Shown here one piece after another: positions 5,529-53,571 of a stretch of 64,000 bases of DNA (positions are counted from its first letter, which is position 1; each line of letters starts with the position of its first letter). Origin of the DNA: Lysobacterales bacterium (lineage in GTDB: Bacteria > Pseudomonadota > Gammaproteobacteria > Xanthomonadales > SZUA-38); contig JAWVZU010000001.1 of the NCBI GenBank assembly GCA_033722075.1, forward strand, positions 129-64,128, given 5' to 3'. The position numbers were made by a program, and so were the translations under genes. The notes below the pieces were generated by a model. That model did not search any database and was not told the DNA's origin. It was given only the letters and a program-made list of their open reading frames with translations.

Positions 5529-5864
5529 ATGATCTGTGTAACGACTGATTTTGTCGCGGGGCGGGAGATCGCCGAGACGATCGGCGTGGTGCGCGGCAGC
5601 ACCATTCGCGCCAAGCACGTGGGGAAGGACATCATGGCGGGCCTGCGGACCATCGTCGGCGGCGAGTTGAAGGAATACAGCGAGATGCTGATCGAAACCC
5701 GCAACGAAAGCATGAAGCGGATGATCGAAGCGGCGGAAAAACTGGACGCGGATGCAGTGGTCTCGGTTCGTTTCGTCACCTCCCAGGTCATGGCCGGGGC
5801 GGCCGAACTGCTAGCCTACGGGACCGCGGTGAAGCTCTCGACCCCGGACAGCGGGGCTGATTGA
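5529..5864 (+). CDS. ybjQ: YbjQ family (UPF0145) protein
   Basis: 111 aa. GVVRGSTIRAKHVGKDIMAGLRTIVGGELKEYSEML and AVVSVRFVTSQV are typical of YbjQ. Confidence 0.85.
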   Translation: MICVTTDFVAGREIAETIGVVRGSTIRAKHVGKDIMAGLRTIVGGELKEYSEMLIETRNESMKRMIEAAEKLDADAVVSVRFVTSQVMAGAAELLAYGTAVKLSTPDSGAD

Positions 5865-6718
5865 TGCGCTGGCGTGGAAGACGGCAAAGCACCAACGTCG
5901 ATGACCGGCGAGGAAAGCGCACCGGCGGCCCGGGGCTGAAGATCGGGGGCATTGGCGGGCTGGTGCTGATCGTGGTGGCGCTTTATTTCGGTGTCGATCC
6001 GCGCATCCTCCTTCAGGGGCAAGGTGTATCCTCGACTTCCTCACCCAGCGAGCCCTATCAGCCGACGGCCGCAGAGCAGGAACGTGCCGCCTTTGTCCGA
6101 GTAGTGCTGGCCTACACGGAAGACGTCTGGAGTACCTTGTTCAGAAACGCCAACCGTACCTATGAAGAGCCGACACTGGTGCTCTTCACGGACGCCGTGA
6201 GCTCGGCCTGCGGCTTCGCCCAGGCAGCAATCGGACCCTTCTACTGTCCGGCGGACAAGCAGGTGTATATCGACCTGAGCTTCTTCGACGCCCTCGCCAG
6301 GCGCTTCGGTGCACCGGGCGACTTCGCCCAGGCCTACGTCGTCGCCCATGAGGTCGGCCACCACCTGCAGACCTTGCTCGGCATATCGCAGCAGGTGCAT
6401 GCGCAGCGGCGGCAGCTGAGCCAGGCAGAAGGAAACCAGCTTTCGGTCCGCCAGGAGCTGCAGGCGGACTGTTTTGCGGGCGTCTGGGCACACCATGCGG
6501 ACAAGATGCAGGACATCATCGAATCCGGCGACGTGGAAGAAGCGCTTAATGCGGCCACCGCCATCGGCGACGACACGCTGCAGCGAAAGTCCGGCAATCA
6601 GATCAGTCCCGAGTCCTTCACTCACGGAACTTCGGAACAGCGGGTACGCTGGTTTCGACGGGGCCTGGAGACCGGCGACCTCGATCAGTGCGATACCTTC
6701 GCGGCCGACCGGCTCTGA
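5864..6718 (+). CDS. ypfJ: YpfJ-like neutral zinc metallopeptidase
   Basis: MRWRGRRQSTNVDDRRG matches the YpfJ N-terminus, and there is a HEVGHH zinc motif. I chose the ATG at 5864 (1-nt overlap with the ybjQ stop) over the track TTG at 5861. Confidence 0.85.
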   Translation: MRWRGRRQSTNVDDRRGKRTGGPGLKIGGIGGLVLIVVALYFGVDPRILLQGQGVSSTSSPSEPYQPTAAEQERAAFVRVVLAYTEDVWSTLFRNANRTYEEPTLVLFTDAVSSACGFAQAAIGPFYCPADKQVYIDLSFFDALARRFGAPGDFAQAYVVAHEVGHHLQTLLGISQQVHAQRRQLSQAEGNQLSVRQELQADCFAGVWAHHADKMQDIIESGDVEEALNAATAIGDDTLQRKSGNQISPESFTHGTSEQRVRWFRRGLETGDLDQCDTFAADRL

Positions 6719-37209: not shown

Positions 37210-39669
37210 ATGATTCGGCCGGTTGCCTTGCTGGATTGTGTCATGACTCACCGTTTCGCCTGCCTGTTTGCCGCACTGGTGTCCATGTCTGCGGTCGCCA
37301 CCGATATTCCCCTGGGAAATCTGCCTGCCGACCAGGGCCTGCGAATCGAAGGCCTCGCGCGCAACGACCAGGCGGGTTCGGCTGCTCTCGCCACGGGCGA
37401 CTTCAACGGCGACGGCATCAAGGACCTGGCTTTCAGTGCGACCGGCGTGGACGCGGCAGTCAACGGCAGCACGGCCGCCAACGTCGGCGAGGTGTATGTC
37501 CTGTTCGGCCATCCGACCGCCTTTGAAGATCCGATCGATCTGAACGAGATCATCAACGGAGACGGCAGCCGCGGCTTCGCCGTCCGCGGCGAGTTTCCCG
37601 GCAACGCGATCGGCGCGAACCTCATGGGGGTGGACCTGACCGCCGACGGGATCGACGAGCTCGTGATCAGTTCTCCCCGATCGGGTACGACCGCCGGAAA
37701 CCAGGGCATCGTCTACATCCTCTTCGGCAAGCGCGGGAGTTTCGATCCGGTGTTCCCGCTAGGTCGCCTCCGGACCCAGGACAACAGCGGCACCGGCGAG
37801 GGATTCATCGTGTCCGGCACCCAGCTCAACGGGCAGATCGGCGCATCGCTGGCCGCCCTGGAAGACTTCAACGGCGATGGCATCAGCGACCTGTTGATCG
37901 GCGGATCCCTCATCTCGAATACGAGTTCTACCAACGGCCGCCTGGGCCAGAGCGTGATACTTTTCGGGCGTGACGGCACCGAGAGCTGGCCGGCGACGCT
38001 GCGTACGGTGGACTTCCGCGAGGACCTGCTGGGTGAACTGCTCGGAACCCTGATTACCTCGGCCGGTTCCGAGGAGCAGGGGGGCGACGCCTCGCTGAGT
38101 GCCGGCGATGTCAACGGCGATGGCCTCAGTGACTTCTTTTTCGCGGGTCCGAACGGCGATGGACCCAACGGCGAAGCGGGCGCCGGTTTCGTCGACCTGC
38201 TGGCAGGCCGCTCGGCCTACGGCGGTGACATCGAACTGCGCGTCCGCTCCCAGGCCGGCATTCTGACCCGCTTCTTCGGTGAAGCCGGTGATGGTGCCGG
38301 CACCGATCTCGCCCGACTGGGCGATTTCAACGGCGACGGGCACGAGGATTTTGCGATCAGCGCGCCCTTCGGCGGCGCCGACGAGCGGGGGCGCGTGTAC
38401 ATCCTGTTTGGACGCCCGGTCGGTCAGCCCTGGGGAAGCGACGTAAGACTCATGCAGCTGGTTGACTCGAATGGCGCCGCAGTGATCAGCGGCGGTCCGG
38501 AAGAGCGCATCGGGCAGTCCGTCTCCGCCACCGGCGACGTGGACGGAGACGGTTTCGACGATGTGCTCATAGGCGCCGCCGAAGGCGGCATCGCGGGTCG
38601 CGCCTACCTCGTTTTCGGACGGGCCAGCGAGCGACGGATCGACCTGACCCAGGACTCGGGAGTCACGCGGTTCGAGGGGGCCATGGCGGAAGACTTCGCG
38701 GGCCGCTCGGTGGCTGGACGAGGTGATTTCAATGCCGACGGAAGCCACGACTTCACGATCGGCTCGACGCTGGCGGATGGCGCTGTCGAGAACGCCGGCA
38801 GCCTGCATGTCCTGTTCGGCGCCGGGGAAGATGCGGCACCCCCCATGCAGGGCGAACTGAGCCACGCCCTTTACGACCCGGCTCTTCCCGGCCAGGGCGT
38901 ACTGCTCGAATACGGCCAGCGCAATGGTCAGGGTGGACTCTTCGCCGCCTGGTACACCTTCGAGGCCGGACAACCGATCTGGCTCGTGACCGACCTGCCC
39001 GCGTTCGCCCGCGGTCAACGTTCGCTGGTCGCACCGCTGTTTGTCACCGAAGGCGCTTTCTTCGGAGAAGACTTCAACTCGAACCAGGTCAGCACCGAAG
39101 CCTGGGGCAGCGTCCGGGTAACCCAGACTCGATGCGGCCGGATCCTCTGGGAGTATGAGCGGGCGTCCGACGGCCAGGCCGGCCGTCTTCTCCTTCGACC
39201 GGTACTGGCGGACCTGCTGGGTCTCGATCTTTGCGCCTTGAACCGCGACGAAGACACGGCGACCAACCCTAGACGCCAGGTGGCCGGGACCTTCTGGAAC
39301 CCCGATCGATCCGGCGAAGGCATTCTCCTCGACCTCGAGGACCGGGCGGGTCCACCACAGCTATTCTTCTCCTGGTTCACCTATAATCAGGGACGGCAGG
39401 TCTGGCTCGTCGGCAGCGGTCCGATGGATGTCGTCTCCGGGCGCGCCTCGGCGATCGAACTCTTCGAAGCCGGCGGGGCAGATTTCGGGAACCGGTTCGA
39501 TCCGGGCGAGGTGGCGCTGCGTCGCTGGGGCAGCGTCGACCTGGAGTTCGCCGGCTGCGGCACGGCGGAGCTGAACTATGCGGGCAGTTTTGCCGGGCAG
39601 AACGAGCAGATCGGACGCATAGCCCTCGAGCGGTTCACCGACGGCCTGGCAGATTTCGACTGCAATTGA
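37210..39669 (+). CDS. Secreted FG-GAP (integrin-alpha-like) seven-blade repeat protein with two copies of an unknown C-terminal module
   Basis: 819 aa. There are seven GD(F/V)(N/D)(G/A)DGxxD Ca-binding FG-GAP repeats (aa 62-520). Two ~125-aa repeats follow (aa ~548-676 and ~690-819) with the motifs NP/DPxxxG(Q/E)G, F(A/S)W(Y/F)T(F/Y), WLV, WGSV and paired Cys. The start may be at 37243 (MTHRF). Confidence 0.85.
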   Translation: MIRPVALLDCVMTHRFACLFAALVSMSAVATDIPLGNLPADQGLRIEGLARNDQAGSAALATGDFNGDGIKDLAFSATGVDAAVNGSTAANVGEVYVLFGHPTAFEDPIDLNEIINGDGSRGFAVRGEFPGNAIGANLMGVDLTADGIDELVISSPRSGTTAGNQGIVYILFGKRGSFDPVFPLGRLRTQDNSGTGEGFIVSGTQLNGQIGASLAALEDFNGDGISDLLIGGSLISNTSSTNGRLGQSVILFGRDGTESWPATLRTVDFREDLLGELLGTLITSAGSEEQGGDASLSAGDVNGDGLSDFFFAGPNGDGPNGEAGAGFVDLLAGRSAYGGDIELRVRSQAGILTRFFGEAGDGAGTDLARLGDFNGDGHEDFAISAPFGGADERGRVYILFGRPVGQPWGSDVRLMQLVDSNGAAVISGGPEERIGQSVSATGDVDGDGFDDVLIGAAEGGIAGRAYLVFGRASERRIDLTQDSGVTRFEGAMAEDFAGRSVAGRGDFNADGSHDFTIGSTLADGAVENAGSLHVLFGAGEDAAPPMQGELSHALYDPALPGQGVLLEYGQRNGQGGLFAAWYTFEAGQPIWLVTDLPAFARGQRSLVAPLFVTEGAFFGEDFNSNQVSTEAWGSVRVTQTRCGRILWEYERASDGQAGRLLLRPVLADLLGLDLCALNRDEDTATNPRRQVAGTFWNPDRSGEGILLDLEDRAGPPQLFFSWFTYNQGRQVWLVGSGPMDVVSGRASAIELFEAGGADFGNRFDPGEVALRRWGSVDLEFAGCGTAELNYAGSFAGQNEQIGRIALERFTDGLADFDCN

Positions 39670-40109: not shown

Positions 40110-40775
40110 ATGCGCAAGACTGCAGTTGTCATTTCGGCTCTGGTCGGAGCCATCTTCACCGCATCCGCTTCGGCCGACGTGCGAGTCGAATACAGCACCG
40201 TCAACAAATCGATCACGGTCCAGGAAAACGAAACCGCTGGAGACCTGGATTCGGTCAACGGATCCATCCGCATCGGTGACTTCGCGACCGTCGGCAGCGT
40301 CGAGTCCGTAAACGGCAGCATTCGGGTCGGACAAGGGGTCCGCGCCGAGTCCATCGATTCCGTCAACGGCGGGATCAGCCTCGAAGGCGATGTCACGGTC
40401 GAGGGCACCATCGAGACGGTCAATGGGGGCATCGAAGCCGACCCGGGCGTTCGCATTGTCGGCGGGGTCAGCACGGTCAACGGTACGCTGGACCTGGACA
40501 ACGCGCTGGTGGAAGGGGATATCACCACCTACAACGGCGCCATAATGCTGCGCAACGGAACCTCCGTGGCTGGTGACATTCACGTCAAGAAGTCCCGCAG
40601 TTCCGGCTGGTCCCTGTTCGGCGGCAAGAAGAAGCCCGTGATCATCGAGATCGGGGACGACAGCATCATCCAGGGCGACCTCTATTTCGAACGGCCCGTG
40701 GAACTGCGGGTTGGCCGCAATGCCCAATACGGTCGCATTCACGGCGACGAAGTGCAGATGCACGAACGCAAGTAG
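40110..40775 (+). CDS. Secreted repeat protein, predicted beta-helix (DUF4097/bactofilin-like VNG repeats)
   Basis: Signal peptide MRKTAVVISALVGAIFTASASA, then about six repeats of ~17 aa centred on (S/T)VNG(S/G/T)I. The fold assignment is inference. Confidence 0.6.
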   Translation: MRKTAVVISALVGAIFTASASADVRVEYSTVNKSITVQENETAGDLDSVNGSIRIGDFATVGSVESVNGSIRVGQGVRAESIDSVNGGISLEGDVTVEGTIETVNGGIEADPGVRIVGGVSTVNGTLDLDNALVEGDITTYNGAIMLRNGTSVAGDIHVKKSRSSGWSLFGGKKKPVIIEIGDDSIIQGDLYFERPVELRVGRNAQYGRIHGDEVQMHERK

Positions 40776-46054: not shown

Positions 46055-46530
46055 GCACCCGCCTCCTCCGACCGGCGGACGTTGTCCTGCTCCAGGTCGA
46101 GGAGAAAGCGCTTTGTCTCTGCACCGCCCACATAGCCTCCCAGCTGACCGTCGGCACGCACGACTCGGTGGCATGGAACCACGATCGGCAGCGGATTCTT
46201 GCCCAGTGCGCCGCCGACGGCCCGATAGCCGCGCCGGCGACCGGCCGCCGTGGCCAGTTCCGCATAACTGCAGGTCCGGCCATAGGGCACACGATCCAGT
46301 GCGGCCCAGACAGCGCGCTGGAAATTGCTGCCCTCGGGACGCAGGGCCAGAAGAAAACTCTGCCGCCGGCCCAGGAAATACTCGGCCAGCTGGCGGATTG
46401 CCTCATCCAGCACCGCGGCATAGCCCCCGGGCTGTTCGGTCTGACCAAACGCAATCTCGAGGAGGTGACCGCGATCGGCGATCAGGGTCAGTGGTCCCAC
46501 CGGCGACTGAACGACCTTCACGGCTCTCAT
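46051..46530 (-). CDS. ogt: Methylated-DNA--protein-cysteine methyltransferase
   Basis: Start re-picked at MRAVKVVQSPVGPL. It has the active-site motif VPCHRVV and YGRTCSYAELA. Confidence 0.9.
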   Translation of the reverse strand: MRAVKVVQSPVGPLTLIADRGHLLEIAFGQTEQPGGYAAVLDEAIRQLAEYFLGRRQSFLLALRPEGSNFQRAVWAALDRVPYGRTCSYAELATAAGRRRGYRAVGGALGKNPLPIVVPCHRVVRADGQLGGYVGGAETKRFLLDLEQDNVRRSEEAGA

Positions 46531-47054
46531 GGGCGCTGCGATTCCTCGAGCCGGTCCAGAAAGGCCTCGAACAGGCGTTCCAGATCGACCGTATCCGTCA
46601 GCCGGTGACCCGCATCGAGGATGTGCAGCGTGGCCCGGTGTTCGCGGGCAAACCGGATCACCTGATCCGGCGGCACGACGTCGTCGCGCCAGCCGTGCAC
46701 GATATGAATCAGCCCGGTCTTGACCTGGTGGTCGAGGTCGTCGTAGCCCGGCCAGTAGACTGCCGGGGCCATCAGGAACAGCCCGTCGACCGCATGTTCC
46801 CTGGCGACGAATACGGAGACCACGCCGCCCATGCTCGATCCCACCAGGACAACGGATTCGGTGCAGTCGGCGATCACCGAAGACAGCGTCCTGATGCGTT
46901 CGGCGGCATCCATACCGGAGTAATCGGGAGCTTTCGTCATCCAGCCCCGCTCGGCGGCCATGGGGCGCAGCAGTTCGATCTTTCGCGATCGTGGACTGCT
47001 GTCCTTTCCATGCGAAAACACCATCAGGCCCTGGCGTGGCGTTCCCCCGGTCAT
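46527..47054 (-). CDS. Alpha/beta hydrolase (YqiA-like esterase fold)
   Basis: Start re-picked at MTGGTPRQGLMVFSHG. It has the nucleophile elbow GSSMGG and C-terminal HGWRDDVVP ... GHRL. ATGA overlaps at both ends. Confidence 0.65.
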   Translation of the reverse strand: MTGGTPRQGLMVFSHGKDSSPRSRKIELLRPMAAERGWMTKAPDYSGMDAAERIRTLSSVIADCTESVVLVGSSMGGVVSVFVAREHAVDGLFLMAPAVYWPGYDDLDHQVKTGLIHIVHGWRDDVVPPDQVIRFAREHRATLHILDAGHRLTDTVDLERLFEAFLDRLEESQRP

Positions 47055-47974
47055 TCCATGCCCTCCCTGGCCCGAACGGCCGCGAGTTCCTTCTGGCGGT
47101 GGCGCTCCATGAGCGCGGCGCGGCGCTCCTCGTCGACGCTCCCATGGCAATGGACGCAGCACACGTGGGGAATGAATTCCGGCAGGTCCCGCTCACCTGG
47201 ACCGATGGGCATCCTGCAGTTGGGACAAACCTCGTGATCGCCGGCGCGCAGATCGTGATCAACCGTCACCCGGTCGTCGAAGACGAAGCACTCCCCGGAC
47301 CAGAGACTCTCACTCGCATCAACCTCCTCGAGATAGGAGAGGATGCCACCGTCAAGCTGATAGACCGCCTCGAAACCGCGATCCAGGAGATAGGAAGACG
47401 CCTTTTCACAGCGGATGCCCCCGGTGCAGAACATGGCGATGCGACGATCCCGCTCGGGATCCAGGTGTTCGCTCACGAACTGCGGAAAATCGCGGAACGA
47501 CTCGGTCGCCGGGTTCAACGCGCCTTCGAAGGTTCCGAGATACACCTCGTAGTTGTTTCGGGTGTCGATGACCGTTACCCCGGGATCCGCGATCAGCTCG
47601 TTCCACTGGCCCGGCGGAACGTGCGTTCCGGTGCGTCGATCGGGCCGCACGTCCGGCACGCCCATGCTGACGATCTCGTCCTTGAGGCGCACCTTCATGC
47701 GGCCGAAGGGATGCTCCGGATGGCGCGATTCCTTCCAGGTCAGATCGCGCATCGGAGGGTGTTCCCGAAGCCAGGCGAACATCCTGTCCAGACCGGACCG
47801 GTTTCCCGAAACGGTGCCGTTGATGCCCTCCGCGGCGAGAAGAATCGTGCCGCGCAGGCCTTCGGCCCGGCACAGCGCTGCCAGCGGATCACGCAACGAT
47901 TTATACTCCGGCAGTGCGACAAACCGATAGAATGCCGCGACGACCAGTTGCTCTTGTTCAGGCTTTCCATGCAT
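47051..47974 (-). CDS. trhO: Rhodanese-domain tRNA uridine(34) hydroxylase (TrhO/YceA, UPF0176)
   Basis: 307 aa. AAFYRFV, LLAAEGINGTVSG, the rhodanese loop CTGGIRCEKAS, and a C-terminal Cys-rich tail. Confidence 0.88.
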   Translation of the reverse strand: MHGKPEQEQLVVAAFYRFVALPEYKSLRDPLAALCRAEGLRGTILLAAEGINGTVSGNRSGLDRMFAWLREHPPMRDLTWKESRHPEHPFGRMKVRLKDEIVSMGVPDVRPDRRTGTHVPPGQWNELIADPGVTVIDTRNNYEVYLGTFEGALNPATESFRDFPQFVSEHLDPERDRRIAMFCTGGIRCEKASSYLLDRGFEAVYQLDGGILSYLEEVDASESLWSGECFVFDDRVTVDHDLRAGDHEVCPNCRMPIGPGERDLPEFIPHVCCVHCHGSVDEERRAALMERHRQKELAAVRAREGME

Positions 47975-48826
47975 CCAACGCAGTTTAACAAAGGCGTGGG
48001 CATCCTCGCCCTCCTCGTTGCGCTCGCGAGTGACGCGCAGGAAGTTCGCTGGTTCGTCGTTTCCGAGATCGAACCGAACCGAAACCAGTCCTACCTGCTG
48101 CCCTTGGCCGATCCGGAAGCCATAGAACAGGCTCGGGTCCTGGTCGACCAGGGGCCCGGCAACGGCGTCGGGAGCATTGCCAGCGTTCGCATCAGTGCCG
48201 GACCGAACGGGTTCAATCGCGACGTCCTCGCGGAAGGATCACCGTTATGGAGCTGGCACGTGACCGAGTTCCTGGGATTTGCGGACCTTGCAATCGAACT
48301 GTGCGACGGCTGGCCGGGGTTCATCGAACAGGACGTCGGCGCCTTCATCCGCAACACCCAGGGACAGGTCTGCTTCTGGGGCTATACGGTCACCGCGGAA
48401 CTGGATGAAGCGCCGCTTTTCCGGATCAACAGCAGCCTGAACGGCGGCTGGTTCAACCCGGCAACGCCGGGCCAGGGGCTGATGATCGACGTTCTCGACG
48501 ACGACCAGATGTTCGTCGCGTGGTTCACCTTCGAGGAAATGGCGGCGAAGATCGGCGCGCCGGAGCACCGCTGGCTGACCGCCCAGGGCGGCTGGGACGA
48601 GAACCGGGCGGACCTGGGTCTGACCCTGACGACCGGAGGCGTATTCGATGCTCCGGAACCGGTCGAAAATGCGCCGGTGGGCACGCTGGAGCTCATCTTC
48701 GAACACTGCAACCGCGGTGAGGCGGTCTATCGATTTTCCGACGGCAACCCGCCCGACGGGACCTTCCCGATCCAGCGTCTGGTGCCGGACCCATCCTGCC
48801 AGCCCGGCGGCGGCGAGGCGATGTGA
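47969..48826 (+). CDS. Secreted two-domain protein: an unknown N-terminal domain plus one copy of the recurrent C-terminal module
   Basis: Only the last 285 aa of the 611-aa track ORF are credible, because the rest is antisense to trhO. Signal-like MHPTQFNKGVGILALLVALASDA. The module spans aa ~155-277 (GGWFNPATPGQGLMIDV, FVAWFTF, WLTAQGG, GTLELIFEHC ... PSC). Confidence 0.65.
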   Translation: MHPTQFNKGVGILALLVALASDAQEVRWFVVSEIEPNRNQSYLLPLADPEAIEQARVLVDQGPGNGVGSIASVRISAGPNGFNRDVLAEGSPLWSWHVTEFLGFADLAIELCDGWPGFIEQDVGAFIRNTQGQVCFWGYTVTAELDEAPLFRINSSLNGGWFNPATPGQGLMIDVLDDDQMFVAWFTFEEMAAKIGAPEHRWLTAQGGWDENRADLGLTLTTGGVFDAPEPVENAPVGTLELIFEHCNRGEAVYRFSDGNPPDGTFPIQRLVPDPSCQPGGGEAM

Positions 48827-49395
48827 CCCGCTACGCCCACCCCGACTGGGTCAGCTACCAGGACAAGCTGGACCAGCGTGACCCCCACCTGGTCGATCTG
48901 GTCGTCATCCACTGCACCGAACTACCGGATATGGCGACGGCCCGGGAGTACGCGGAACGCATTCTGTACGAGTCGGGGACCGGCGCTTGCGGACATTTCT
49001 ACATCGACCGCTCCGGAAAGCGATTGCAATACGTGCGGATCGATCGGATCGCCCACCACGTCCGCAACCATAACGAGCGCTCGATCGGCGTCGAACTGGT
49101 CAACCTCGGTCGTTATCCGGACTGGCTGCACAGCGACCATCAGGCGATGACGGAAAGCTACCCACCCGAACAGATCGAGAGCCTGATCGAGTTGCTGGAG
49201 CGCCTCGTCGAGGATCTTCCGGAGTTGCGATACATCGCCGGCCACGAGGACCTGGATACGGCCCTGGTTCCGTCCGAGAACGAACCATCGATCCAGGTCC
49301 GTCGAAAGGTCGATCCCGGGCCCCTGTTTCCCTGGGAAACGGTGCTCGGGCACGTGCCCCTGCAACGCCTCGACTCCAGCGATAAACTACGTTAA
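48823..49395 (+). CDS. N-acetylmuramoyl-L-alanine amidase (Amidase_2/AmpD-like)
   Basis: 190 aa. VVIHCTE, GHFYIDRSG, HVRNHNERSIGVELVN and IAGHEDLD are PGRP/AmpD zinc-amidase motifs. ATGA overlap with the upstream secreted-protein gene. Confidence 0.85.
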   Translation: MTRYAHPDWVSYQDKLDQRDPHLVDLVVIHCTELPDMATAREYAERILYESGTGACGHFYIDRSGKRLQYVRIDRIAHHVRNHNERSIGVELVNLGRYPDWLHSDHQAMTESYPPEQIESLIELLERLVEDLPELRYIAGHEDLDTALVPSENEPSIQVRRKVDPGPLFPWETVLGHVPLQRLDSSDKLR

Positions 49396-49425: not shown

Positions 49426-50955
49426 ATGCGCTTGATCGTTCTTGTTCTGGTCCTGTTTTCCGGGCCTCTGCTGGCCCAGATCGATCTCCGCCTCACCCAG
49501 GTGACTGACGTCACCAGCGTGGTCGACATCAAACATGCCGGCGACGGCAGCGATCGACTGTTCCTGGTCAGGCAGTTCGGGGACATCCGTATCCTCAAGG
49601 CCGGGACCCTGCTCGAAACGCCCTTCATGGACATCCGACCGCAGATCACGATCGGCCAGGAACAGGGGCTGCTGAGCATCGCCTTCCCGCCCGATCATGC
49701 TGCAAGCGGACGCTTCTACGTCTATTACACGGATGATTTCGGGCGGGGAACGATCAGCCGCTTCCAGGTCCAGGCGAACAACCGGGACCTGGCCGACCTG
49801 ACCAGCGAGGAAGTCCTCCTGACCGTCAATCAGCCGTTCCCGAATCACAACGGGGGGCGGCTCGAATTCGGTCCTGACGGCATGCTTTACTTCGGGTTCG
49901 GTGACGGCGGATCGGCCAACGATCCCGAGGGCAACGCCCAGAATCCTCGCACGCTGCTGGGCAAGCTGATCCGCATCGACGTGTCCACGGACGTCGACTA
50001 CGCGATCCCGCCGGACAATCCGTTCGTCGGCGACCCGGACGTGCGCGATGAGATCTGGGCGCTCGGACTGCGCAACCCGTGGCGCATTGCCTTCGACCGG
50101 ATGACCGGAGAGTTGTATATCGCCGACGTCGGGCAGCAGGAGATCGAGGAGGTCAATCGCCAGCCGGCGGGCACCGGCGGCCAGAATTACGGCTGGGACC
50201 GCTTCGAGGGCAACCGCTGCTTCGAGGGCGACTGCAATCAGAGCGGCCTGACTTTCCCGATCCTCGAGTACCCCCACTCGGAGGGCTGCTCGATCACCGG
50301 TGGCCAGGTCTATCGCGGCCTGGACTATCCGGCCCTGCAGGGCATCTATCTCTTCGGCGACTTCTGCTCGGGAACGATCTGGGGCGTTCGCTCCAACGAG
50401 ACCCAGCACATGGTCCTGCTCAGCACCGACCTGATGATCACGACCTTCGGAGAAGACGAGGTCGGCAATGTCTATGTCGCCCACGGGGGCGGCGGAACCG
50501 GTGCCAAGGGGACCGGCCCGCGCGGCGTCTACCTGATCAGCGACGGTGCGCCGGTCGAGGACTCCCGGCCCATCGTCGGCCAGCACACCGGAACCTACGT
50601 CGTCGACGGCCTCCCGGACCAGGGATTCTTTCTGACGGTCGATGAGAACGCGAGCGGACCGTTTATGTTCTTCGCCTGGTTTACTTTCCTCGATGGCGAG
50701 CCGTTCTGGCTGGTCGGGGTCGAATTCTTCAGCGAGGGCGACGCAAGCGTCGTCGTGCCCGTCGGCACCCGGCGGGGCCCCGGTTTCCTCGATTTCTCCG
50801 GCGATTCGGCCCAGGCCGAGGACTTCGGCACCATGTCCTTCACGGCCGTGAGTTGCACCCAGTTCCGGGTGGACTACGAGTTCGACGACTTCGGGGCCGG
50901 CAGCCTGGTGCTCGACAAACTTACCGGGGTCAAGGACTTCGCCTGCGAGGACTGA
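49426..50955 (+). CDS. Secreted PQQ-dependent sugar dehydrogenase (YliI/sorbosone dehydrogenase-like) with the recurrent C-terminal module
   Basis: Signal peptide MRLIVLVLVLFSGPLLAQ. The beta-propeller motifs are HNGGRLEFGPDGMLYFGFGDGG, GLRNPWRIAFD and YIADVGQQEIEE. The extra C-terminal ~125 aa (aa 385-508) carry GLPDQGFFLTV, FFAWFTF, FWLVG and FGTMSFTAVSC ... FAC. Confidence 0.85.
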   Translation: MRLIVLVLVLFSGPLLAQIDLRLTQVTDVTSVVDIKHAGDGSDRLFLVRQFGDIRILKAGTLLETPFMDIRPQITIGQEQGLLSIAFPPDHAASGRFYVYYTDDFGRGTISRFQVQANNRDLADLTSEEVLLTVNQPFPNHNGGRLEFGPDGMLYFGFGDGGSANDPEGNAQNPRTLLGKLIRIDVSTDVDYAIPPDNPFVGDPDVRDEIWALGLRNPWRIAFDRMTGELYIADVGQQEIEEVNRQPAGTGGQNYGWDRFEGNRCFEGDCNQSGLTFPILEYPHSEGCSITGGQVYRGLDYPALQGIYLFGDFCSGTIWGVRSNETQHMVLLSTDLMITTFGEDEVGNVYVAHGGGGTGAKGTGPRGVYLISDGAPVEDSRPIVGQHTGTYVVDGLPDQGFFLTVDENASGPFMFFAWFTFLDGEPFWLVGVEFFSEGDASVVVPVGTRRGPGFLDFSGDSAQAEDFGTMSFTAVSCTQFRVDYEFDDFGAGSLVLDKLTGVKDFACED

Positions 50956-50974: not shown

Positions 50975-51760
50975 TCAGATCTCGATCGTGCCTCGCAGGT
51001 AGGTTGCGCATCCGGCTTCCAGGATTACGCGCGCTCCGGCCACCTCGGCGACAAGCCGCCCACCGCGCCGGGAGAGCTGGGCGGCGGTGAGCCGGCTCTT
51101 GCCAAGACGCTCTGCCCAGAAAGGTGCCAGGGCACAATGGGCCGAGCCCGTGACCGGGTCTTCCGGCACCCCGACCGCCGGCCCGAAGAAACGCGAACAG
51201 AAGTCGGTCTCTTCTCCGGGCGCCGTCACGATGATCCCGCGGGCCGCAACGGATGCCAGGGCGTCCATCGCCGGGCGCAAGCCGACGACCTCGGACGCGG
51301 AATCCAGCTCACACAGGTAGTCTTCTCCGGCCCGCCAGACCGCCTTCGGCTCCATGCCCAGGGCTGCAGCGAGGCCTTCGGGCGCATCAGCCGGGCTGGA
51401 GGCTTGCGCGGGAAGGTCCATCCGGTAGCCCTGTGCGTCCCCGCGACTGACGACCAGCTGACCGCTGCGGGTCGAGAATCGGACCGATGAAGCCGCGGCG
51501 TCGAACTCGGTCATGATGACGTGTCCACTGGCCAGGGTCGCATGGCCGCACAGTTTCACCTCCGTCGTCGGAGTGAACCAGCGCAGCTCGTTGACATCGC
51601 CGGCAGCGACGAAGAACGCGGTTTCCGAAAGGTTGTTTTCGGCCGCGATCGATTGCATCACCGAGTCCGGCGGCCAAGCGGTCAGGGGGCATACGGCAGC
51701 CGGATTGCCGGCAAACACAACATCGGTGAACGCATCCACCTGGAACAAGGGCACTTTCAT
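50975..51760 (-). CDS. PhzF-family isomerase
   Basis: 261 aa. [24 protein letters not shown] and LCGHATLA are PhzF family motifs. Confidence 0.88.
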
Positions 51761-53571
51761 TGGGTTGCCTCCGCCAGCGCTTCTTGCAGGGCACCAAGGA
51801 AGATTTCACCGTAGCGCTCGAGCTTCTTGGCCCCCACGCCGGGAATTTCGGCCAGTTCTGCGAGAGTCTCCGGATGCTCGACGACCATGGCCTGCAGGGT
51901 CGCGTCATGGAAGATGACATAGGGCGGCACACCCTGCTCGTGAGCCAGGTCCAGGCGAGTTTCCCGCAGGCTTTCGAAGACCCGTCGCTGCTCTGCGTCC
52001 AGTCCGACCGGGGCCGCCGTCTTTCTCGCCGCCTTGCGCGTCTTCTTGACCGGGCGGCGCAATTCCAGGTTCGTCTCCCCCCGCAGCAGCGGTCGGCAGC
52101 TGTCGTTCAGATGCAGGGTTCCATAGCCGTCGACGTCGACATCGACCAGTCCCCGCGCAACCAGTTGCCGGAGGAGCGTGCGCCATTCGGCTTCGGAATG
52201 ATCCCGGCCCACGCCGAAGACCGACAATCGATCATGCCCCCAGCGCTCGACCTTTTCCTGGGTCTTGCCTCGCAGGACGTCGACGACCTGGCCAACCCCG
52301 AAGCGCTGCCCGGTCCGATAGATGGCCGACAAGGCCATCCGCGCCGCCTCCGTCGCATCCCAGGTGTCCGGAGGATCCAGGCAGTTGTCGCAGTTGCCGC
52401 AGGGCGCCGCCAGTTCCTCACCGAAGTAGCCCAGGAGAGCCACCCGCCGACAGCTGGACAGCTCGCAATAGCCCAGCAGGGCATCCAGCTTGGCCCGCTC
52501 GACGCGCTTGCGCTGCTCCCCGCTCTCCGACTCCTCCAGCATGGAACGGCGGCGGATCAGGTCCGAGAGGCCGTAGACCATCCAGGCCGTCGCCGGCAGC
52601 CCATCCCGACCGGCGCGCCCGGTTTCCTGGTAATAGGCCTCCACGCTGCCGGGCAGGTCCAGGTGGGCCACGAACCGGACATTGGGCTTGTCGATCCCCA
52701 TGCCGAAGGCGATCGTGGCAACGATGACCTGTCCCTCCTCGTTGAGAAAGCGCGTCTGGTGCCGCTGCCGAAGCTCGGAATCGAGACCCGCATGATAGGG
52801 ATACGCGGGGATCCCCCTGGCCGTGAGCCACTCGGCGGTTTCCTCCACCGACCGCCGGCTGAGGCAGTAGACGATGCCTGCATCGCCCCGGTGCTGCTCT
52901 TCGAGAAAGCGCAGCAGCTGCTGCTTGCCGCCCTGCCGTTCGGCCACCCGGTAGGTGATGTTGGGCCGGTCGAAGCTCGCGATGAACTCGCCCGGATCGC
53001 GCAGGCCGAGGCGAGTCACGATCTCGCGGCGGGTCGGGCCGTCGGCGGTCGCGGTCAGGGCCATCCGCGGCGCATCGGGAATCCGGTCCGCCAGTGCCGC
53101 AAGCTGCATGTACTCGGGACGAAAGTCATGGCCCCATTGAGACACGCAGTGGGCTTCGTCGATGGCGATCAGGGCCACCGGCAATTCGCCGAGCAACTCT
53201 GCCGTCCGGGGCTGCAGAGCCCGCTCGGGCGCCAGGTAGAGGAGATCGATTTCACCGGACCGAAGGCGGCGTTCGATGTCCGCCTGGTCGGTGCTCGAAA
53301 GCGTCGAGTTGAGCGCCTCGGCCCGCACCCCCAGCTGCCGCAGCGTGGCGACCTGGTCCGCCATCAGGGCAATCAGGGGTGAGATCACGACGGCCACACC
53401 AGGCCGGACCAGCGCGGGAATCTGGAAACATAGCGACTTGCCGCCACCGGTCGGCATGAGGACGAGCGCGTCGCGGCCCTCGCAGGCAGATTCGATGATC
53501 TCCTTCTGCAGCCCTCGAAAGGCCCGATACCCGAAGACTTCGCTGAGGATCTGGGTCGCTTCCCTGCCCAT
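51757..53571 (-). CDS. recQ: ATP-dependent DNA helicase RecQ
   Basis: 604 aa. [48 protein letters not shown], a Zn-binding CGNCDNC, and a C-terminal HRDC ([15 protein letters not shown]). Confidence 0.95.

Follow-up and report, generated by a model that had tools for sequence, protein, structure and literature searches.

An AmpD-like amidase gene and the gene of a putatively exported BP74_N protein form a compact, lineage-specific locus

A gene for a putatively exported protein (gene 1) and the AmpD-like amidase gene that overlaps its 3′ end (gene 2) probably belong to one compact, lineage-specific transcription unit without depending on each other in function. Both lie in a 64,000-nucleotide stretch of DNA from a Lysobacterales bacterium, called the window here. 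The two genes most likely lie side by side through dense gene packing, not as a dedicated sensing pair, because they neighbour each other in only one small lineage, and the locus is an ordinary lineage-specific operon arrangement. The gene pair itself matters little; the C-terminal module and the BP74_N fold of the gene 1 product are the more interesting by-products of the analysis.

Gene 1 (47969..48826, + strand; NCBI MDX1568881.1) is an open reading frame of 285 codons whose product begins MHPTQFNKGVGILALLVALASDAQE and is predicted to consist of a signal peptide, a BP74_N domain and a C-terminal barrel module. Full-length homologues fall into about 80 clusters, and the AF2 model of the protein has a pLDDT of 86 and a pTM of 0.80. 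The signal-peptide-like leader, MHPTQFNKGVGILALLVALASDA followed by QE (47969..48043, +), was recognized by inspection, hydropathy and homologue alignment: its n-region contains a Lys, its hydrophobic core spans 12 residues and the residues at −3 and −1 are small, and Kyte–Doolittle hydropathy over 10 residues peaks at 3.13 at residue 10. This leader architecture, which ends just before (E)T/V-W-F, recurs in nearly all of 24 aligned homologues. No RR motif was seen in the leader on inspection, and it appears to be Sec-type. Conserved leaders among the homologues, two Cys pairs conserved in the protein family and PEP-CTERM tails on relatives that have only the N-terminal domain together suggest that the gene 1 product is exported, and the description of a 285-aa protein with a signal-like N terminus in the initial annotation is borne out by the reading frame and by conservation of the leader. 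Annotations differ on the start codon, with NCBI choosing GTG 47996 (276 aa) and ENA giving 285 aa. We favour the ATG as the probable start because L035, a relative that is 85% identical, retains MHPAQFSKGAG without a start codon at the GTG position. The hydrophobic core and a cleavage-like site between SDA and QE are retained from either candidate start, and the ATG adjoins that of the divergent trhO-like gene (ATGCAT, 47969–47974).

Residues 27–146 of the gene 1 product (48047..48406, +) form a domain that is modelled by AF2 with an alpha/beta fold and a conserved Cys112/Cys135 pair. This region had been described as an unknown domain of about 130 aa; the motif quoted for it, WSWHVTEFLGFADLAIELCDGWPGFIEQDV, is indeed present at residues 94–123, but the domain is already catalogued as BP74_N (PF23621), which gene 1 matches with an E value of 5.3e-15 and 55.7 bits against a cutoff of 27, over profile positions 3–112 of 114. 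All 29 aligned relatives match BP74_N, and E110, D113, W94, W96, N83 and R84 are invariant in the alignment of homologues. BP74_N is a catalogued yet uncharacterised Pfam family. Modelled alone, the domain reaches a pLDDT of 94, a confident prediction without a counterpart among solved structures: Foldseek with this model gave no PDB match (best E 0.9), and a PDB sequence search with the BP74_N profile gave nothing meaningful. PDB sequence searches with the gene 1, N-terminal domain and module profiles returned only MORN-repeat and ribosomal-protein noise, and literature searches for BP74 or PF23621 yielded nothing relevant. Fusion of BP74_N to the barrel module was found only in Xanthomonadales-like gammaproteobacterial contigs. 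In other phyla, PEP-CTERM-like or hydrophobic tails take the place of the module, and BP74_N occurs alone with such tails in Planctomycetota and Myxococcota; neighbour clustering around 42 BP74_N-only loci revealed neither conserved neighbours nor cell-wall neighbours.

The C-terminal module of about 135 aa (48419..48823, +), which contains conserved Cys247/Cys277, is predicted to fold as an avidin/lipocalin-like eight-stranded beta-barrel. Its best Foldseek matches are avidin, streptavidin, nitrophorin and the PvdP barrel, all of them weak (E 4e-3 to 0.1, TM ~0.45), and the matches in the BFVD viral library are avidin-like barrels only. The module has no match in Pfam, NCBIfam or PDB sequences. 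When the module alone was used to query a word-indexed protein database, just 15 short stand-alone modules were returned; an exhaustive representative search revealed the family, with the module profile recovering 6,727 representative clusters (50% identity level). Three weaker copies in the window (38818–39240, 39265–39666 and 50569–50952), at 22–27% identity, confirm the earlier observation that the module recurs. The domains joined to it are lipases, cupredoxins, peroxidases, beta-propellers, a xylanase and adhesin-like repeats, not cell-wall enzymes, and this range of partners leaves the suggestion that the module recognises peptidoglycan-derived ligands unsupported. The module behaves like a generic C-terminal appendage of secreted gammaproteobacterial proteins, and finding its ligand would annotate thousands of proteins.

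Gene 2 (48823..49395, +; NCBI MDX1568882.1) encodes a 190-aa AmpD-like zinc amidase of the Amidase_2 family (PF01510; E 2.9e-21, 76.6 bits against a cutoff of 26, residues 24–167). Its product begins MTRYAHPDW and, as had been proposed, carries no export signal: an N-terminal hydrophobic leader, signal peptide, lipobox and twin-arginine motif are all absent from it and from 19 further family members, and its hydrophobicity peaks in the core strand VDLVVIHC. H30, H141, D164 and K162 are invariant in 20 members of the family, which hhalign aligns with E. coli AmpD end to end at a probability of 98.7%. Against the AmpD equivalog model NCBIfam NF008758, gene 2 scores 43.7 bits, below the cutoff of 143, and its product is a member of an AmpD-like subfamily, not an AmpD equivalog. 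The leader and extra domain of periplasmic AmpDh2/AmpDh3/AmiD-type enzymes are missing from this 190-aa chain, which appears to be a cytoplasmic-type, AmpD-like enzyme. We found 5,803 homologues of gene 2, with 60–65% identity to proteins of Lysobacter, Stenotrophomonas and Xanthomonas. The family of ~190-aa amidases is spread across Xanthomonadales without gene 1, and in Lysobacter capsici, Stenotrophomonas and Marinicella the amidase gene is the first after a divergent neighbour, with gene 1 absent.

Read directly from the sequence, the stop codon of gene 1 and the start codon of the amidase gene overlap as GTGA (48823..48826, +), preceded by a GAGG Shine–Dalgarno-like motif (48815–48818, +). 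The amidase starts at GTG 48823, and the ATG at 48821 is the final codon of gene 1. The four-nucleotide overlap is therefore real, although it had been read as ATGA, the form that occurs in L035; L040 has GTGA. As the initial annotation held, the overlap makes translational coupling of the two genes plausible in this window. The unrelated recQ and phzF-like genes of the same window also overlap by 4 nt (51757–51760), so an overlap of this length is not beyond chance here. In a high-GC genome, such an overlap is no functional signal by itself where it joins the gene of a cytoplasmic enzyme to that of an exported protein. Among the four relatives in which the genes are linked, the overlap is retained in two, and gaps of 35 nt (L034) and 59 nt (L038) separate the genes in the others. 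A consensus scan identified one sigma-70-like match, CTGCCA-18-TATACT (47878..47907, +), within the trhO coding region and ~60 nt before the ATG of gene 1, a weak indication given that 0.5 sites are expected by chance. Downstream, a GSDH gene (49426..50955, +) encodes a signal peptide, a PQQ-type glucose/sorbosone dehydrogenase (Pfam GSDH, E 8e-44) and the same C-terminal module as in gene 1, recognized by alignment. The gene follows the amidase after a 30-nt spacer in which no terminator-like site was found, so it may possibly be read in one transcript with the amidase; this arrangement is conserved in L035 only.

Upstream of gene 1 lie a divergent trhO-like gene (47051..47974, − strand; UPF0176_N and rhodanese domains by Pfam) and a gene for a UPF0227-like alpha/beta hydrolase (46527..47162, −; Pfam). 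The hydrolase is a widely conserved and recurrent divergent neighbour of the amidase across Xanthomonadales, adjacent to or near it in Stenotrophomonas (L043), in Lysobacter (L041) and in L004. The amidase lies directly downstream of gene 1 in just 4 of 29 informative distinct relatives, all four of which have the hydrolase–trhO block upstream of gene 1. In a crude neighbour-joining tree these four relatives fall within one clade, which also holds the unlinked L002 and L047. A pair conserved across relatives had been the expectation for a cell-wall recycling or sensing function, and this distribution largely speaks against it: adjacency is not conserved beyond one lineage, and the overlap is not conserved wherever the pair exists. 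In L004 the amidase and gene 1 are again close, 2.2 kb apart, but they are arranged differently. Neighbour clustering around full-length relatives of gene 1 found no conserved partner and only clade-specific synteny, to which high-GC shadow ORFs add noise. Two observations count against independence of the two genes. One is their proximity in L004. The other is that the block of hydrolase and trhO, divergent from gene 1 and the amidase, is retained at 54–61% protein identity while both outer flanks differ, a pattern seen more typically in operons under selection than in genes adjacent by chance.

The proposal of a recycling or sensing pair supposes a role for the exported BP74_N–barrel protein in binding, releasing or chaperoning fragments of peptidoglycan, whether periplasmic or at the cell surface; the amidase would process the imported products, and coupling would fix the stoichiometry of the pair. 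Co-directional adjacency kept in four divergent relatives despite reshuffled outer flanks is what such a pair would predict, as are the overlaps in the window, L035 and L040; L004 offers a second kind of proximity between gene 1 and the amidase, and the invariant acidic and aromatic residues of BP74_N are compatible with a glycan-binding or catalytic site. We nevertheless regard a genuine turnover or sensing pair as unlikely: 25 of the 29 informative relatives of gene 1 do without the pair, the amidase family occurs throughout Xanthomonadales in the absence of gene 1, and no cell-wall genes lie beside the BP74_N-only genes of other phyla. Both BP74_N and the module are unlike known peptidoglycan-binding or lytic folds, the partners of the module are not related to the cell wall, and the 35–59-nt spacers in two linked loci break the coupling. 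The proposal is weakly supported. In its most novel form, the BP74_N–barrel protein would be a hitherto unrecognised participant in peptidoglycan turnover, acting in the periplasm or at the surface in this Xanthomonadales sublineage, for example a muropeptide-binding or -releasing factor of new fold tied stoichiometrically to the amidase by translational coupling, and to this we give a low probability.

Two further readings concern the location of the products. A downstream true start would leave gene 1 without a signal peptide and its product in the cytoplasm; in its favour, no intergenic space separates the start codon of trhO from that of gene 1, and NCBI did select another start at GTG 47996. 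We rejected this reading on the conserved leader of the homologues and the comparison with L035, and give it almost no weight: both candidate products have a hydrophobic core and a cleavage-like site, no further start codon lies in frame between GTG 47996 and the conserved mature N terminus (E)VRWF, leaders of like design precede nearly all of the 24 aligned homologues, and an extracytoplasmic location is favoured both by the conserved Cys pairs and by the PEP-CTERM tails of BP74_N-only relatives. Equally improbable is export of the amidase without a signal of its own, for example as a hitch-hiker on the product of gene 1, to act on the sacculus like AmpDh2 or AmiD. In the PDB sequence search, periplasmic AmpDh2 does match the family profile slightly better (2.4e-9) than AmpD does (1.3e-6), but signal peptides, lipoboxes and twin-arginine motifs are lacking in all family members examined. 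Hitch-hiking by the Tat route was rejected on the missing RR motif, as the apparently Sec-type leader of gene 1 would be incompatible with carriage of a folded protein. The amidase is also a single domain of 190 aa like AmpD, lacks the extra peptidoglycan-binding domain of the AmpDh2 and AmiD chains (~255–260 aa) and aligns with E. coli AmpD end to end.

Returning to two independent genes in a shared transcription unit, we propose that gene 1 encodes a Sec-exported two-domain protein in which the PEP-CTERM-like or hydrophobic tail of BP74_N relatives would have been replaced by a promiscuous avidin-like barrel module. The module most likely has a generic role in envelope retention or ligand binding, because it decorates thousands of unrelated secreted proteins. 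Gene 2 would be the single-domain cytoplasmic zinc amidase carried by essentially all Xanthomonadales. By homology to AmpD, its most likely role in peptidoglycan recycling is to cleave the L-Ala stem peptide off anhydro-muropeptides that have been imported. Within one sublineage, trhO and gene 1 appear to have come to separate the amidase from the UPF0227-like hydrolase, its divergent neighbour in the ancestral arrangement, so that the amidase would now be read from the gene 1 transcript. In this genome the GTGA overlap probably couples translation of the two genes; such coupling would touch expression alone, and we see no sign of joint action by their products.

Comparison with known systems places gene 2 beside AmpD of E. 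coli and Citrobacter freundii, likewise a single-domain Amidase_2 protein of ~185–190 aa with no export signal. The zinc ligands and catalytic Lys of gene 2 (H30/H141/D164/K162) align with H34/H154/D164/K162 of E. coli AmpD, whereas identity over the core is just ~28% and the HCTELPD motif is specific to the gene 2 family. Linkage of a cytoplasmic-type amidase to an exported protein had been called unusual, yet the E. coli ampD gene also overlaps by 4 nt with that of its partner AmpE, an inner-membrane protein; ampE lies downstream and encodes a membrane protein, whereas the partner gene here lies upstream and its product is predicted to be soluble and exported. Yang et al. in 2009 reportedly placed S. 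maltophilia AmpDI outside any ampD–ampE operon. A 187-aa Stenotrophomonas protein shares 63% identity with the gene 2 amidase, and the Stenotrophomonas locus examined, unlike that of gene 1, has the amidase without a BP74_N neighbour. AmpDI (Smlt1562) of Stenotrophomonas maltophilia, which belongs to Xanthomonadales, is a cytoplasmic AmpD homologue that processes GlcNAc-anhMurNAc-tetrapeptide (PMC5574705, PMC13214185). Avidin, streptavidin and the lipocalins (calycins) share with the module an eight-stranded up-and-down barrel of ~130 aa, a fold that is predicted for the module, and avidin-family proteins dominate its best fold matches in both libraries. These matches are weak, at 12–17% identity and with no sequence similarity, and unlike avidins and lipocalins the module is appended, often in tandem, to the C terminus of large secreted proteins.

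The window carries a gene for a protein of 285 aa (gene 1; 47969–48826, forward strand; NCBI MDX1568881.1) followed directly by one for a 190-aa AmpD-like amidase (48823–49395, forward strand; MDX1568882.1). Both belong to already known kinds, and we conclude that they are probably independent genes held in a compact, lineage-specific operon. The 4-nt overlap between them is real; because the amidase starts at GTG 48823 it reads GTGA, and in the ATGA proposed by the initial annotation the ATG is the final codon of gene 1. The source is a Xanthomonadales metagenome-assembled genome (window GC 62–67%), and the long open reading frame listed from 46991 is a high-GC shadow frame opposite the divergent trhO-like gene (47051–47974, reverse strand). 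The earliest plausible start of gene 1 is ATG 47969, directly adjoining the start codon of trhO in ATGCAT (47969–47974); NCBI places the start at GTG 47996 (276 aa) and ENA gives the 285-aa product. We favour ATG 47969 because L035, a locus from an 85% identical relative, keeps the same ATGCAT layout (L035 941–946) and encodes Ala, with no start codon, at the GTG position. The palindromic ATGCAT leaves zero intergenic region between the two start codons, and the promoters of gene 1 and the trhO-like gene must each lie inside the other's coding sequence; the GTG 47996 start sidesteps this zero-gap layout.

The N-terminal part of the gene 1 protein, initially described as an unknown domain of about 130 aa, is catalogued as BP74_N (PF23621; residues 27–146, window 48047–48406; Pfam E 5e-15), and residues 147–285 have no match in Pfam or NCBIfam. 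The full architecture of leader, BP74_N and C-terminal module occurs in about 80 protein clusters at 42–85% identity; those with a taxon name belong to Xanthomonadales-like gammaproteobacteria, Aquimonas and Lysobacteraceae genomes among them. Nearly all 24 aligned homologues have a leader of 20–30 residues, with basic residues and a hydrophobic core, ending just before a conserved (E)T/V-W-F; in those without a standard leader the called start seems truncated or over-extended. The same alignment shows full or near-full conservation of two cysteine pairs, C112/C135 in BP74_N and C247/C277 in the module. Shorter BP74_N-only relatives from Planctomycetota, Myxococcota and other groups end in a hydrophobic or basic tail, matching a PEP-CTERM model in 4 of 18 aligned cases. 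Together, leaders, cysteine pairs and tails make predicted export of the gene 1 product well supported. AlphaFold2 models the whole protein at pLDDT 86 and the N-domain alone at pLDDT 94, and a Foldseek search of the PDB with the BP74_N model gave no match (best E 0.9, TM no higher than 0.2). No PDB sequence match and, in a literature search, no publication on BP74_N were found, and no neighbour is conserved across 42 loci of BP74_N-only genes.

The module (window 48419–48823) is predicted to fold as an eight-stranded up-and-down barrel, avidin/lipocalin-like; by sequence it matches nothing in Pfam, NCBIfam or the PDB. Its best fold matches, all weak (E 4e-3 to 0.1, TM about 0.45), are avidin/streptavidin, nitrophorin/lipocalin, the PvdP barrel and TbpB-type barrels. 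Weaker copies elsewhere in the window (22–27% identity to that of gene 1) lie in tandem at 38818–39240 and 39265–39666, at the end of an FG-GAP repeat protein of 819 aa whose N-terminus is signal-like (37210–39669), and at 50569–50952 on a PQQ-type glucose/sorbosone dehydrogenase just downstream of the amidase. Also in the window is a 221-aa protein (40110–40775) with a signal-like N-terminus, repeated VNGSI/VNGGI motifs and no Pfam match at E ≤ 1e-3. Searching a 1.84-billion-protein library with a module profile returned 6,727 representative clusters (50% identity), of which 4,135 reach E ≤ 1e-10. Most of the top 150 matches contain the module twice, as a rule at the C-terminus or close to it, in secreted multidomain proteins of 250–1,600 aa. 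The partner domains are GDSL lipase, CARDB, PPC, DUF285, di-haem cytochrome c peroxidase, cupredoxin, cyclophilin, GH10, NHL, Kelch, SGL, GSDH and FG-GAP, and stand-alone proteins of about 150–200 aa are hardly more than the module. This pattern of partners and positions across secreted proteins fits a generic envelope-retention or binding appendage, a mechanism we infer. Such a role also agrees with the module taking the place of the PEP-CTERM-type tail that BP74_N proteins have in other phyla. No cell-wall enzyme was found among the partner domains, and the proposal that the module recognises peptidoglycan-derived ligands draws no support from these data. Separate follow-up is warranted for the uncharacterised fold of BP74_N and, even more, for the barrel module, a very large family that is uncatalogued.

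To assess linkage of gene 1 and the amidase, we gathered 94 loci from species-representative genomes, metagenomes and exact-protein look-ups and merged them at gene 1 identity ≥ 95%, leaving 29 distinct informative relatives (full-length, with ≥ 600 nt downstream). The amidase lies directly downstream of gene 1 in only four (L034, L035, L038/L039 and L040), at 56–85% gene 1 identity to the window. All four have trhO immediately upstream and divergent, and three, every one with a long enough contig, have beyond it a small UPF0227-like alpha/beta hydrolase gene, as at 46527–47162 in the window. The linked gene 1 sequences fall in one clade of a crude neighbour-joining tree, which also holds the unlinked L002 and L047; in the Aquimonas clade and others gene 1 sits in quite different contexts. 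L035 (ATGA) and L040 (GTGA) retain the overlap; L034 and L038 have spacers of 35 and 59 nt, respectively, in its place. The L038 spacer (5832–5890) includes the sequence TTGGTC-17-TATCAT, whose end is 9 nt from the amidase ATG; it is a possible internal promoter, from which the amidase transcript of that relative would be nearly leaderless.

Amidase neighbourhoods in other genera identify a different partner. In Lysobacter capsici the amidase lies between tesB and a run of rlmL, hydrolase and MOSC genes; in Stenotrophomonas, rlmL and the hydrolase occupy the divergent side; in Marinicella, the divergent neighbour is yceD and the downstream one tesB. Gene 1 is absent in all three. The UPF0227-like hydrolase recurs as divergent neighbour in Stenotrophomonas, Lysobacter and a Lysobacteraceae genome (loci L041, L043 and L004). 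It is thus the widely conserved amidase partner, linked far more broadly than gene 1, and gene 1 with trhO intervenes between the two in one sublineage only.

No terminator-like site was found among gene 1, the amidase gene and the dehydrogenase–module gene, and one promoter-like match, the only one, is located some 60 nt before the ATG of gene 1, making co-transcription, with translational coupling in this genome, plausible. Both bear on expression, not on joint function. The dehydrogenase gene (49426–50955) encodes a signal peptide and begins 30 nt downstream of the amidase behind a GGGGGA ribosome-binding-site-like motif; the cytoplasmic amidase thus sits between two exported module-bearing proteins, a layout kept only in L035.

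The initial observation therefore stands with two corrections, GTGA and BP74_N, but its reading as a cell-wall recycling or sensing pair is supported only in part, because the pair is largely not conserved among relatives. In favour of a functional pair, the four-gene block persists at 54–61% protein identity while both outer flanks differ, L004 offers a second kind of proximity (a Lysobacter-type amidase context with gene 1 2.2 kb off on the opposite strand), and invariant acidic and aromatic BP74_N residues could form a binding or catalytic site; against the 4 of 29 linkage we consider such a pair unlikely. That gene 1 truly starts elsewhere and lacks a signal peptide is highly improbable: the hydrophobic core and an SDA/QE cleavage-like site are retained with either start. 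An exported amidase is just as hard to credit. No leader was found in any amidase family member, as the initial annotation held for this protein; all are about 185–200 aa long, and the top N-terminal hydrophobicity belongs to the core strand VDLVVIHC. Independent genes in a shared operon remain our preferred reading.

The amidase (Amidase_2; Pfam E 2.9e-21) belongs to a family of 5,803 matches distributed throughout Xanthomonadales, with 60–65% identity to Lysobacter, Stenotrophomonas, Xanthomonas, Luteimonas and Pseudoxanthomonas proteins and 55% to a Marinicella protein. Alignment with E. coli AmpD spans the family's full length (98.7% probability in hhalign), its invariant H30, H141, D164 and K162 matching AmpD H34, H154, D164 and K162. 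However, identity to AmpD is about 28%, the AmpD equivalog model scores 43.7 bits against a cutoff of 143, and a PDB sequence search places the enzyme about equally far from AmpDh2, AmiD, AmpD and T7 lysozyme; by sequence, it is thus a subfamily distinct from AmpD proper. Homology makes the removal of stem peptides from imported anhydro-muropeptides its most likely activity, the one described for S. maltophilia AmpDI (PMC5574705, PMC13214185). Its pairing with gene 1 is not unusual. In the window, the apparently unrelated recQ (51757–53571, reverse strand) and phzF-like (50975–51760, reverse strand) genes overlap by 4 nt (51757–51760), with an equivalent overlap in L035, and E. coli ampD shares 4 nt with ampE, the gene for an inner-membrane protein, just as gene 1 and the amidase gene do here.
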